Source of the DNA: a virus
Taxonomy: Duplodnaviria > Heunggongvirae > Uroviricota > Caudoviricetes
Virus record (IMG/VR): IMGVR_UViG_2713896768_000025
Length of the DNA: 4,110 nt
Direction: 5' to 3' (one strand)
Shown: piece by piece, positions 1,838-4,048 of the stretch
How the letters are laid out: every line of letters starts with the position of its first letter
Position numbering within the stretch: the stretch's first letter is position 1
Position numbers and translations under genes: made by a program
Notes under the pieces: generated by a model
Database searches by the model: none
The model's input: the letters and a program-made list of their open reading frames with translations, nothing else
What the model was told of the DNA's origin: nothing

Positions 1838-1863
1838 AATAAAAAGCCTTCAGGACTGAAGGC
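1838..1863 (-). terminator. Rho-independent terminator after the small wHTH gene
   Basis: Stem GCCTTCA (1846-1852) / TGAAGGC (1857-1863), loop GGAC. On the minus strand it is followed by TTTTTATTT (complement of 1838-1845). The stop codon of the 65-aa ORF (1850-1852) lies inside the stem. Confidence 0.45.
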
Positions 1864-2047
1864 GTCTGTAACAACCGCACTGATAGTCTGCCAGACCCGC
1901 CATAACAAGCTGGGTCAGTATTAACTGGCAGCGTTCGCGTGAAAGGTAAGTATTCTGCGCAATCTCCCCGACTGTCGCCGGTTCGGTAACGCTTAATTCA
2001 TCAAACACAACTCTGGCGGTTTCTGTCATATCCTGCTGTTTCAGCAT
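1850..2047 (-). CDS. Small (65 aa) putative winged-helix/HTH DNA-binding protein, function unknown
   Basis: ORF MLKQQDMTETARVVFDELSVTEPATVGEIAQNTYLSRERCQLILTQLVMAGLADYQCGCYRRLQS. The segment TVGEIAQNTYLSRERCQLILTQLVMAGLA has the spacing of a helix-turn-helix recognition unit. ATG at 2047-2045 with a weak AAGGG upstream; followed by a terminator hairpin. Family assignment is inference only. Confidence 0.5.
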   Translation of the reverse strand: MLKQQDMTETARVVFDELSVTEPATVGEIAQNTYLSRERCQLILTQLVMAGLADYQCGCYRRLQS

Positions 2048-2313
2048 GTCTTTTTACCCTTTCCGGTTAACGTGACATACCAATAACTCTTGTCTAAAAA
2101 GCCAGCAAGATAAAAAGCCAGTATTCACGACCACCAGCGTGTTTACTGTACTGCACAAGGTTTACAGGTACAAAAAACCGCTCAGCGGCGGGTTTAAGTT
2201 GTGTGGCGAAGTAACCACTCTTAACACGATATAATACTTTTTGCGTACGCGTTAGGATTTTTATAAACTATGCGTCCCCATTCTCGCTATCTTTAGTCGG
2301 TCCTGGAATACAC
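2048..2313. promoter_or_regulatory. Divergent intergenic region between the wHTH gene and the AT-rich cassette; probably holds promoters and operators for both
   Basis: 266 bp of non-coding sequence between divergent start codons (2047 minus, 2314 plus). Contains the direct repeat AAAAAGCCAG at 2096-2105 and 2112-2121, a TATAAT at 2230-2235 without a good -35, and TTGCGT-15nt-TATAAA at 2241-2267. No promoter could be called with confidence. Confidence 0.3.
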
Positions 2314-3159
2314 ATGAAAGTTAGAAGCATAGGATTTACAATAAATAACAATAACAAAAATATTAATACCGTTGACGTAATGAATGCTTTTATCAACGCA
2401 TCAAACAGAGAACACAGTCGCACAGACTATACTCGTAAAATTCTCATTTCGGATGTGAATGATTTCTATTATGGATTAGTTGTCACATTCAGAAACCAAA
2501 AAAAGAACTGTAAGTCGCAATTTGTTGATGGTAAATTCCAGCTTAAAATTGAAGATCTTCAAGGAAGTGACAAACTTGCTAATTTCAACTTTTTCTTAAT
2601 TAAAAAATCTAATCTTTCTGGTCTCTATATGTATCACCACGGTTCATGCAGTCTGAACACTCTCTTTTCTCATTTAGAAACAATAAGTAATGAATTTATC
2701 AGAAATCAAAATAAAGAAGAAATAAAAAAACTTGGTGATAAACCAAAACAAAAAGAAGTAACTGCAATAAATAAAAAATACAAAGAAAGACTGACTTTCA
2801 GCCTTATGACAAATAAAAACAACATTCAGAGTGTTTTATGTCAATTCAAAGAGATTAAAAGCACAAGCTTTAAATTTAATTATATAGATTTTAAAGGTGG
2901 ACCAATGACTGCGCTTGAACAATTTGTTAACACCACCACAATAGATATGAATTTTAATTCTAGCGACAGAACAAAAGTGCAACAACTATCTCAGAATCTT
3001 TCAAATATTTATAATTCTATGAGTGGAGTTGCTAAAGCACAGGTTATTGCAGTAAACCATGCAGGAATAGAAAAAACCATTGATTTTATGAACTGCCCTG
3101 TTTTTGATATGATAAAAGAAGAAATGCTGAACGGGACGAATAAAAATGCCTTTATATGA
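2314..3159 (+). CDS. Hypothetical soluble protein (281 aa), first gene of the AT-rich two-gene cassette; candidate sensor or enzymatic partner of a phage-exclusion module
   Basis: Long ORF in extremely AT-rich DNA (first 60 nt contain 13 G/C). Weak GGAA Shine-Dalgarno 5 nt before the ATG. Asn/Lys-rich, no hydrophobic segments. I see no Walker A, HEPN, PD-(D/E)xK or other catalytic signature. 6 of 8 Arg codons are AGA and at least 10 Ile codons are ATA. The stop TGA (3157-3159) overlaps the start of the next gene. Confidence 0.8.
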   Translation: MKVRSIGFTINNNNKNINTVDVMNAFINASNREHSRTDYTRKILISDVNDFYYGLVVTFRNQKKNCKSQFVDGKFQLKIEDLQGSDKLANFNFFLIKKSNLSGLYMYHHGSCSLNTLFSHLETISNEFIRNQNKEEIKKLGDKPKQKEVTAINKKYKERLTFSLMTNKNNIQSVLCQFKEIKSTSFKFNYIDFKGGPMTALEQFVNTTTIDMNFNSSDRTKVQQLSQNLSNIYNSMSGVAKAQVIAVNHAGIEKTIDFMNCPVFDMIKEEMLNGTNKNAFI

Positions 3160-3694
3160 ATGGCTAATAAATAAAAGATTGAGGTATCAGTACCTTACAC
3201 TGCTTGCATTCTCGATCCTGGCATTGCTTGCACTTTACCTATTGTACAGAAACACACCTAAAGTAAGTGTTAACTTTTTTGAGTTTTATCATAAAAACTT
3301 ACGAGGCTATCTCTTCTCCGGTTTTATTTCCGTGGGCTCATTTTTATTGAGCCTGCATACCTTTGTCATAATAAATTTACGCGATAAGGTTTTTGCAACT
3401 CAGGAATATAAGGAAATTTATAGCATTGCCACTGGTATACCTATTGACAAAATCAATGATAGTGTACTTTATAAACCTTTAGACAATTTATCCTCATTTA
3501 TTAATACATCAATATTATGTTCTATCACAACAGCAATTGCACAATTCACTATTGGACTTTCAACTAATTTATATGCATGCTTATTTTGCGTATGGCTTGC
3601 AATACTAACGGTATTTCTTTTATTACATTGCCTCATCATAATCAGACAAAATATTAAAATTTTATTAAAGCAACAGAGAAAAAAAGGGGGGTAA
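3146..3694 (+). CDS. Hypothetical integral membrane protein (182 aa, about four TM helices), second gene of the cassette; candidate membrane effector
   Basis: ATG at 3146 overlaps the upstream ORF by 14 nt, suggesting translational coupling. Four hydrophobic stretches: about residues 15-34, 53-76, 117-137 and 141-165. Basic C-terminal tail QQRKKGG. Arg codons are AGA x4, AGG x1, CGA x1, CGC x1, with many ATA Ile codons. The stop TAA (3692-3694) sits in the loop of the terminator hairpin. Confidence 0.8.
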   Translation: MPLYEWLINKRLRYQYLTLLAFSILALLALYLLYRNTPKVSVNFFEFYHKNLRGYLFSGFISVGSFLLSLHTFVIINLRDKVFATQEYKEIYSIATGIPIDKINDSVLYKPLDNLSSFINTSILCSITTAIAQFTIGLSTNLYACLFCVWLAILTVFLLLHCLIIIRQNIKILLKQQRKKGG

Positions 3695-3708
3695 TTCCCC
3701 CTAATATT
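3679..3708. terminator. Shared convergent terminator between cassette gene B and the Q gene; strongest in the minus-strand (Q) direction
   Basis: G6 (3686-3691) / C5 (3697-3701) stem with loop TAATT. A7 at 3679-3685 supplies a U7 tract for minus-strand transcripts. On the plus strand the hairpin is followed by the weaker T-rich TAATATT. Both convergent stop codons (3692-3694 plus, 3707-3709 minus) abut the hairpin. Confidence 0.5.
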
Positions 3709-4048
3709 ACAACATTGAAAGCACACCATCCAGAAAACCAAGAGCTGTTTGCAACTCTTTTCTTATTGTCCCATCAGAACACTTCTGCTTCTTTGCAATA
3801 GTTCTTAGTGAGATGCCGATAACAAAATGAGCAATAACCAACTCATACTCTTCGGGCTTATATTTCCGCAATCGCGCAACACAGCTGTCAATCATGATTC
3901 CTTCATCATCATCGCATTGTTGGCGTGTTTTCTTTCCATGAGGTAGTAAACCTTTAAACCCTGCAGCAACAGGCTGCCAGTCCACACCACTGTTATCTGC
4001 TGCAGCCCATGCACCCCAGCGGTCCAATACTTCATACATATCACGCAT
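3707..4048 (-). CDS. Phage late-gene antiterminator Q-like protein (phage-82/QuuD-type small Q)
   Basis: Translation MRDMYEVLDRWGAWAAADNSGVDWQPVAAGFKGLLPHGKKTRQQCDDDEGIMIDSCVARLRK… matches my recollection of the conserved RWGAWAA…AAGFKGL…CDDD…ARL pattern of QuuD/phage-82-family Q proteins. The supplied ORF begins at a TTG at 4063; I prefer the in-frame ATG at 4048-4046, preceded by GGAGA with a 6-nt spacer, which also matches the family N-terminus (MRD…). Confidence 0.8.
   Translation of the reverse strand: MRDMYEVLDRWGAWAAADNSGVDWQPVAAGFKGLLPHGKKTRQQCDDDEGIMIDSCVARLRKYKPEEYELVIAHFVIGISLRTIAKKQKCSDGTIRKELQTALGFLDGVLSML

Follow-up and report, generated by a model that had tools for sequence, protein, structure and literature searches.

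The window analysed here is a stretch of 4,110 nucleotides (nt) from the Caudoviricetes record IMGVR_UViG_2713896768_000025, and covers the late-regulatory region of an Escherichia coli prophage whose genes are read on the minus strand. Along that strand the end of a DUF968 gene is followed by the gene for the late antiterminator Q, a terminator hairpin, a cassette of two genes (A and B) on the plus strand, an intergenic region of 266 nt, genes for a winged helix-turn-helix (wHTH) protein and an AraC-family regulator, three tRNA genes, small RNA (sRNA) genes and nanS-p. A sequence-only reading of the window had listed the Q stop codon, terminator, convergent cassette, wHTH, AraC and tRNA genes in this arrangement, and all are found where it placed them. 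Chromosomal prophages of four E. coli strains are 100% identical to the window, except for 81 bp that the window lacks. The source is likely, in our view, to be a lambdoid prophage that resembles Shiga toxin (Stx) phages but has no stx, and the window its late-regulatory region, in which the late promoter pR', the Q-utilisation site qut and the terminator tR' lie at about 2262-2172, behind a cargo slot holding a possibly RexAB-type cassette.

The Q protein (3707..4048, minus strand) belongs to the Q21/933W family and has 113 amino acids (aa) from an ATG at 4048, in an open reading frame (ORF) that can be extended to a TTG at 4063. It matches Pfam PF06530 over 113 of the 118 profile positions (E 2.5e-45; 153.7 bits against a cut-off of 26) as well as phrog_79, distantly matches the Q21 structures 6P18 and 6JNX (phmmer, E 2.6e-4), and carries the RefSeq label 'antiterminator Q family protein' (WP_001205460.1). 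Four nt past its stop codon, the minus-strand hairpin at 3702-3685 joins six G:C pairs (GGGGGG/CCCCCC) to a U7 tract and thereby forms a strong intrinsic terminator of Q transcription. The hairpin (3685..3702) is common to both convergent transcripts, the Q and cassette stop codons being only 12 nt apart, and it has no U-tract on the plus (cassette) strand. The window as a whole is enriched in terminator-like sites (19, against 3.7 +/- 1.5 in shuffles). In the textbook layout pR' directly follows Q, and annotators locate the promoter that drives stx by that rule. A consensus promoter scan of the window found no canonical sigma-70 promoter directly after Q.

Eighty IMG/VR loci encoding relatives of this Q were fetched and analysed together with the loci already at hand. 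When they are aligned, similarity restarts past the cargo at window position ~2255, whatever the cargo may be. A 27-nt core of the conserved block, GTGTTAAGAGTGGTTACTTCGCCACAC (window 2227-2201), was searched for with up to five mismatches and its distance taken from the Q stop codon. The core is present in 85 loci, 36 nt past Q in phage 1720a-02 and 1001-3778 nt past Q in the other 84; because the sample is biased to the nearest relatives of the window and of its Q, the 84 of 85 speak for this clade and not for all phages with a PF06530 Q, which tempers our interpretation. Four loci have no core match, two of them being too short downstream to be informative. In complete E. coli genomes the core block occurs in 911 of 5426 (at least 17%), Stx2a phages included. 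The sequence-only reading had started from a pR' lying directly after Q, a premise that thus fails in this Q clade, where 84 of the 85 loci carry cargo; its suggestion that pR' and qut had been displaced into 2048-2313 fares better, since that region contains the conserved, Q-type-specific block at ~2262-2172.

The same arrangement is native to related phages. Phages mEp460_4F5 and vB_EcoS-569R4 match window 2015-4110 at 99.2-99.6% and share with it Q, the pair of convergent genes and the intergenic region, which lead to a small ORF, a Dam methylase gene and then holin, endolysin and Rz. In phage Stx2a_1447 a Q of this type precedes a convergent two-gene cassette unlike that of the window, then a small ORF, a methylase gene, tRNAs and stx2, and phage 1720a-02 combines a related Q (59% identical) with no cassette. 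Judged from these layouts, cargo between Q and the candidate pR' is the normal state of this Q clade and no mark of a broken phage, although mEp460_4F5, according to PMC12315714, is without experimental study, which weighs against relying on it. The sequence-only reading had raised the alternative that Q is decoupled from late transcription and the prophage defective, as a remnant with foreign DNA between Q and its promoter would be; this was to be abandoned if an intact relative proved to have Q natively followed by the same genes. Such relatives were looked for and found in mEp460_4F5 and vB_EcoS-569R4, and we now regard a decoupled Q as very improbable indeed. The strain JB2 prophage follows the usual lambdoid order around the window-identical part, from the immunity region to terminase and capsid genes; its annotation marks frameshifts in the portal gene and in a Dam-type methylase gene (locus L001, 1-270 and 18670-19322), so that this copy may be defective for reasons unrelated to Q. 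These frameshifts, a deletion in gene A of the window's cassette and the lack of a canonical promoter after Q are what a defective remnant would have in its favour. Yet the layout of Q, cassette and block recurs in sequenced phages with complete lysis modules and in Stx2a phages, copies of the cassette with at least 99% identity occur in 218 of 5426 complete E. coli genomes, and the cassette occupies the same slot in Yersinia at 49% protein identity. Moreover, Q acts in trans, so that distance would not uncouple it from its promoter (PMC6606751), and any defect of the JB2 copy would lie elsewhere.

Within the block, the candidate pR' core and Q-binding element (2226..2262, minus strand) consists of an A-tract, a -35-like hexamer, a direct repeat and a -10. 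The -35-like CTAACG (2255-2250) agrees with the consensus at three of six positions and is set off by an 18-bp spacer, and the direct repeat ACGCGTACGC (2252-2243) sits between the -35-like and -10-like hexamers. For the -10 there are two candidates, TATCGT (2231-2226) and TATTAT (2236-2231), the former being favoured because, as judged by eye, Yersinia and the Sakai prophage Sp4 keep TAnCGT or TATGCT at an unchanged distance from GTTAAGAGTGG. Transcription would start near 2219. A conserved, initially transcribed leader that begins GTTAAGAGTGGTTACTTCGCCACAC and contains a small hairpin (2192..2225, minus strand) is the expected site of a sigma-dependent pause element, and leads to the candidate tR' (2172..2191, minus strand), a CCGC/GCGG hairpin at 2191-2178 with a U6 tract at 2177-2172. 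With these limits the terminated leader RNA would be ~47 nt long. The conserved unit can be written as an A-tract, yTAACGCGTACGCAAAA, ~10 nt, TAnCGT, the leader motif and, ~10 nt further on, a short G+C hairpin followed by a T-run. TAACGCGTACGCAAAA is invariant across all cargo types and Yersinia ruckeri, and the stem of the tR' hairpin is preserved despite sequence changes in other loci. On the plus strand, positions 2230-2235 read as a perfect TATAAT opposite TATTAT (TACAAT in most relatives) with no usable -35 upstream, which is probably the mere complement of the conserved minus-strand sequence.

This provisional anatomy resembles that of the lambdoid Q cassettes (Q21, 933W, lambda and 82) in its PF06530 Q, in the repeat between -35-like and -10-like hexamers, in the short leader, in the intrinsic terminator ahead of late or moron genes, and in a block that varies with the type of Q. 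In Q21 the binding element is likewise a direct repeat between -35 and -10 (PMC6606751). In the known cassettes, however, Q adjoins pR', whereas in almost all members examined here 1.0-3.8 kb of convergent cargo lies between them; the Q21 repeat is TGAGCA whereas ACGC is repeated here, and the leader predicted for Sakai Stx phages is 258 nt (PMC7547250), far from the ~47 nt estimated above. Several observations speak against the block being the late promoter. The consensus promoter scan calls nothing at 2226-2262, the -35 is poor, and the two -10 candidates overlap and are inseparable. A sigma-dependent pause element was looked for in the leader and no convincing one was seen, the tR' hairpin is short (4-5 bp), the leader folds no better than shuffles (z -1.5), and the period of the repeat is 6 bp as opposed to 8 bp in Q21. 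The TGAGCA repeats of Q21 are absent from this block, Rfam has no family for 2048-2313, and a published comparison of pR' regions (PMC6266700) does not place this promoter. A longer fold of the leader (2221-2100) yields an alternative long hairpin without clear meaning.

In favour of the block stands its covariation with Q. The upstream motif is unchanged with Q alleles that are 87-100% identical, and also in the Yersinia ruckeri prophage, but becomes TTAGCGCGGTCCGCAAAAA in 1720a-02, where Q is 59% identical, and TTTACGTACGTAAAAAA in Sakai Sp4, where Q is 43% identical. Phage phiSTEC1575-Stx2k encodes an unrelated, lambda-type Q (PF03589), and its sequence upstream of the tR' hairpin is unrelated to the window; the hairpin and the entire wHTH-AraC-tRNA module are common to both at 93% identity, with the junction at window 2194. 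A promoter and qut module that is specific to its Q and joined to exchangeable DNA downstream should vary with the type of Q and be swapped at the terminator, as this block does. Among the sites considered, the block at 2262-2172 therefore qualifies best as pR', Q-binding site and tR', its location being well supported and its exact anatomy provisional.

The other site that the sequence-only reading had offered for pR' is a promoter-like sequence at 985..1013 (minus strand; TTGATT-17-TATTAT), 10 nt upstream of tRNA-Ile. Were the late promoter there, or elsewhere past the AraC gene, the wHTH and AraC genes would not be late and the block at 2262-2172 would be an sRNA gene or a regulatory site of the cassette. 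We hold this to be quite improbable. The site does match the sigma-70 consensus better (9/12) than 2226-2262, and the block would give a short terminated RNA that might itself be an sRNA, as StxS is (PMC7547250); a short pR' leader doubling as an sRNA is nevertheless compatible with a late promoter in the block. It is the block that varies with Q, whereas 985-1013 is near-unchanged in the presence of a lambda-type Q and is replaced by a different promoter-like site in loci with a methylase gene, its variation following no change of Q. In addition, mEp460_4F5 and vB_EcoS-569R4 are without tRNAs and AraC gene and yet have the block before their lysis genes. The site at 985-1013 is probably the promoter of the tRNA genes.

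With pR' placed in the block, the sequences between it and the Q stop codon can be read as a cargo slot. They fall into 11 unrelated cargo types plus an empty state, with a G+C fraction of 0.30-0.39 and every long ORF convergent to Q, and each type has its own, different hairpin directly past the Q stop codon. The cargo of the window is the commonest type (32 loci). Others encode a protein with an NA37 domain and a zinc ribbon, a RelA/SpoT protein (PADLOC PDC-S33, E 1.9e-114), a 1050-aa protein (PADLOC PDC-S60, E 1.4e-97) and a membrane protein one end of which resembles an ion channel, and there are several unannotated sets. PADLOC matches are confined to two of the cargo types, both to experimentally unproven candidates, and no validated system was found in the slot. 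Two further types (350 + 179 aa and 273 + 161 aa; loci L009, L036 and L089) pair a soluble protein with a four-helix membrane protein, as does the window's cassette. Comparison of A and B with those pairs by hhalign was negative (probability <2%), and the common architecture of the three types may reflect convergence. The slot of Sakai Sp4 (L091, 17239-18057) holds a gene for a CAAX-protease/Rce1-like (Abi-type) membrane protein that is co-oriented with Q, unlike the convergent cargo of the window's clade.

By these features the slot is a candidate cargo or defence hotspot. It is like a hotspot described in 2022 in another phage group (PMC9122126) in having a fixed position between conserved genes and many unrelated, low-GC gene sets of which some match defence systems, but differs in phage group and position, the flanks here being a regulatory gene and its own target promoter. 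It also differs from the moron slot of enterohaemorrhagic E. coli (EHEC) phages, which lies downstream of pR' (PMC4104026), whereas the present slot is upstream, in the opposite orientation and with a different kind of cargo. The single 'cargo' of the sequence-only reading is in this respect two things, the cassette lying upstream of the late promoter and the moron-type genes (wHTH, AraC and tRNAs) downstream of it. In the literature we found no paper that describes cargo held between Q and pR', treats this slot as a hotspot or links the cassette to Rex, which is weak evidence as subscription journals were mostly outside the search.

A functional role for this position can be imagined. The cargo hairpin has no U-tract on the cargo strand and the cargo is always convergent, so that cargo transcription in the lysogen could run antisense into Q. 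The lambda antisense promoter paQ provides a model for antisense damping of Q. In its full form, this idea holds that lambdoid and Stx phages with a PF06530 Q dedicate the stretch from Q to pR' to defence genes, as a hotspot prone to recombination, in which antisense transcription of the cargo damps leaky Q and the RexA-fold protein encoded next to pR' might act on the late switch, as lambda RexA does on the cI/Cro switch. We think such a design unlikely, but if true it would tie the carriage of defence genes to the stability of the prophage and, where stx is present, to the output of toxin.

The cassette itself consists of gene A (2314..3159, plus strand) and gene B (3146..3694, plus strand), the A stop and B start overlapping by 14 nt. 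Upstream of them, the cargo-specific region 2263..2313 (plus strand) is unconserved between cargo types; with a candidate -10, TATAAA at 2262-2267 (by eye), it presumably holds the cassette's own promoter. Gene A encodes a 281-aa allele of a protein with a 308-aa form. At the junction 3096-3105 (L001:15096-15186) it has undergone an 81-bp in-frame deletion between two CCCTGTTTTT repeats, with a loss of 27 residues that include the invariant D271, A274, G279 and N284, the most conserved motif of the family. The 81 bp are kept in each of the 218 RefSeq copies that are nearly identical to gene A, and 13 contigs are known to carry precisely the 281-aa allele. From the residues lost, the window's allele is probably inactive. 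The A protein belongs to phrog_2802, a family without assigned function, and its homologues (45-100% identical, all ~308 aa) come from Enterobacterales only; a Yersinia ruckeri prophage has the A-B pair in this very slot beside a PF06530 Q, at 49% protein identity. The B protein has 182 aa and four predicted membrane helices, its hydropathy showing segments at 12-37 and 56-78 and a double segment at 135-174, and its family is much larger than that of A (408 clusters at 50% identity). Of four distant B members whose surroundings were inspected, three have an A-like protein of 300-323 aa encoded directly upstream (hhalign 95.5-99.7%), the contig of the fourth being too short to judge. These distant pairs lie in a Mu-like prophage before the lysis genes, beside an integrase and, on the third contig, by themselves. 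By this pairing across contexts, A and B are a conserved mobile two-gene module.

The AlphaFold model of A (predicted local distance difference test, pLDDT, 86; predicted template modelling score, pTM, 0.77) adopts the two-domain fold of RexA and RdgC, and these two were its only significant matches in a Foldseek search of the PDB; a BFVD fold search returned uncharacterised phage proteins only. With such a fold, A probably binds DNA. B, a small four-helix membrane protein encoded directly downstream of A, has the form of a RexB-type effector and is a candidate for that role. In lambda, RexA and RexB have 279 and 144 aa and are encoded in the immunity region beside cI, whereas A and B have 308 and 182 aa in the full-length form and lie between Q and pR'. 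The RexAB-type pair PP_5643/PP_5644 of Pseudomonas putida prophage P1 proved to be an abortive infection system (PMC12894663); like B, it is without RexB sequence homology, but HHpred links its protein to RexA, whereas A has no sequence similarity to RexA. On architecture and predicted fold, the chances that the cassette is a RexAB-type exclusion system seem to us evenly balanced.

A good deal counts against that identification. Global template modelling (TM) scores of A to RexA and RdgC are low (0.30-0.33), and the RexA/RdgC fold also occurs, as a general DNA-binding scaffold, in proteins without a defence role (PMC11077077). At the sequence level A shows no similarity to RexA and does not group with the Rex family: the hhalign probability is 0.5%, none of 25 homologues matches RexA in Pfam at E up to 1, and there is no PDB sequence match. 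B against lambda RexB was likewise negative in hhalign. Pfam, PADLOC, PHROGs and PDB sequence searches with A or B found no function and PADLOC no match, and the A allele of the window is deleted. A weak, in-register N-terminal BLASTP alignment of B with RexB (E 0.026 in one comparison) was not counted as evidence. The cassette might then be a lysogenic-conversion module of another kind, such as a toxin-antitoxin-like addiction pair, a membrane protein for superinfection exclusion governed by a DNA-binding regulator, or a RexA-like factor that modulates the choice between lysis and lysogeny without exclusion, the last recalling that lambda RexA modulates the switch independently of RexB (PMC11077077). 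The general nature of the fold, the missing sequence similarity and PADLOC match, and the circulation of deletion alleles of A in 13 contigs, which implies that A is dispensable, all suit such alternatives. We nevertheless find them possible rather than probable, given the strict pairing of A and B with overlapping stop and start over large divergence and at three prophage positions, the PADLOC defence candidates in the same slot, and the P. putida precedent, which was recognised by largely the same features plus the HHpred link. If the cassette is RexAB-type, a widespread enterobacterial family of A and B (phrog_2802 and its partner) would be added to the few RexAB-type candidates, and Rex-like modules would not be confined to immunity regions.

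Taken together, these elements suggest how the region might operate. A Q of the Q21/933W family would act in trans on a pR'-qut-tR' unit ~1.5 kb past its stop codon, the two being separated by this distance here because the clade keeps a cargo slot in between. A cargo of any type would bring its own hairpin terminator beside Q and, being transcribed convergently, would be insulated from early and late phage transcription and presumably be expressed from its own promoter in the lysogen. There the A protein would sense an infecting phage and activate B, which would damage the membrane. After induction, Q-modified polymerase would read through the wHTH gene, the AraC gene, the tRNAs, the sRNA pair, nanS-p and the lysis genes, as it does through stx. 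This leaves the accepted view of Q action unchanged, and amounts to a refinement of genome architecture with a functional lead. In practice, the rule of placing pR' directly after Q would misplace the promoter in this clade, where it would lie 1-4 kb further on behind a swappable slot, and a candidate sequence for the pR' and Q-binding site of the clade bears on studies that relate variation between Q and stx to toxin output. The slot, with most of its cargo unannotated and two easily recognised flanks, would also be a mineable hotspot for anti-phage systems.

The first ORF after the candidate pR'-tR' encodes the wHTH protein (1850..2047, minus strand), which has 65 aa, matches phrog_331 and, weakly, TrmB/MarR-type families (TrmB, E 0.003), and is identical to Sakai ECs_1086 at 49 of 49 residues. 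A terminator-like hairpin (1846..1863, minus strand) overlies its stop codon (z -3.3; none of 200 shuffles folds as well). The window's best sigma-70-like match (1752..1779, minus strand; ATGATA-16-TATAAT, 10/12) comes next, upstream of the AraC gene, and is probably that gene's own lysogenic promoter. With the hairpin at 1863-1846 and the sigma-70-like site between the wHTH and AraC genes, the AraC gene would combine its own expression in the lysogen with read-through after induction. A hairpin and then a promoter-like site before the gene is the promoter-gene-terminator layout typical of morons.

The AraC-family protein (1003..1716, minus strand; PF00165, E 2.9e-13; 'helix-turn-helix domain-containing protein' in RefSeq) is 89% identical over 195 aa to PsrA (ECs_1087) of Sakai prophage Sp4, and its wHTH-AraC-ileZ-argN-argO-nanS context is the same as in Sp4, which places it in the Psr family. 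Compared with PsrA as annotated in Sakai, the ORF of the window extends 42 residues further at the N-terminus. PsrA and PsrB, which are 90% identical to each other, repress type III secretion and are activators of the GAD regulators of acid resistance (PMC10877973). Past the AraC gene lie an ileZ-argN-argO-type tRNA cluster (723..974, minus strand; tRNA-Ile2(CAT), Arg(TCG) and Arg(TCT)), a convergent sRNA pair found with Rfam, formed by STnc100 (405-613, minus strand; 175.6 bits, E 3.9e-41) and an AgvB-like anti-GcvB sRNA (345-404, plus strand; 56.2 bits, at the gathering score of 56), and the start of a nanS-p-type esterase gene (192-1, minus strand; DUF1737 match). The order of wHTH gene, Psr-type AraC gene, ileZ-argN-argO, convergent sRNA pair and nanS-p is the same as at the EHEC moron site downstream of pR' (PMC4104026) and around psrA of Sp4 (ECs_1086, psrA, tRNAs, ECs_1088), and the sRNA pair stands at the position of the convergent sRNAs of the moron site, where stx sits in Stx phages. 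Ahead of the tRNA cluster, loci of the AraC type and of the methylase type (L009, L010) have two unrelated promoter-like sequences, each with a TATTAT ~10 nt before the mature 5' end of tRNA-Ile2, which suggests that the cluster carries its own promoter regardless of the genes upstream.

The proposal that the wHTH, AraC and tRNA genes lie past the late promoter, like stx, agrees with their location downstream of the candidate pR'-tR'. In phiSTEC1575-Stx2k (L004, 3672-6353) stx2k comes directly after this wHTH-Psr-tRNA module, which itself follows the lambda-type Q, and a homologue of a regulator of acid resistance and type III secretion would be co-transcribed with the toxin after induction of that phage.

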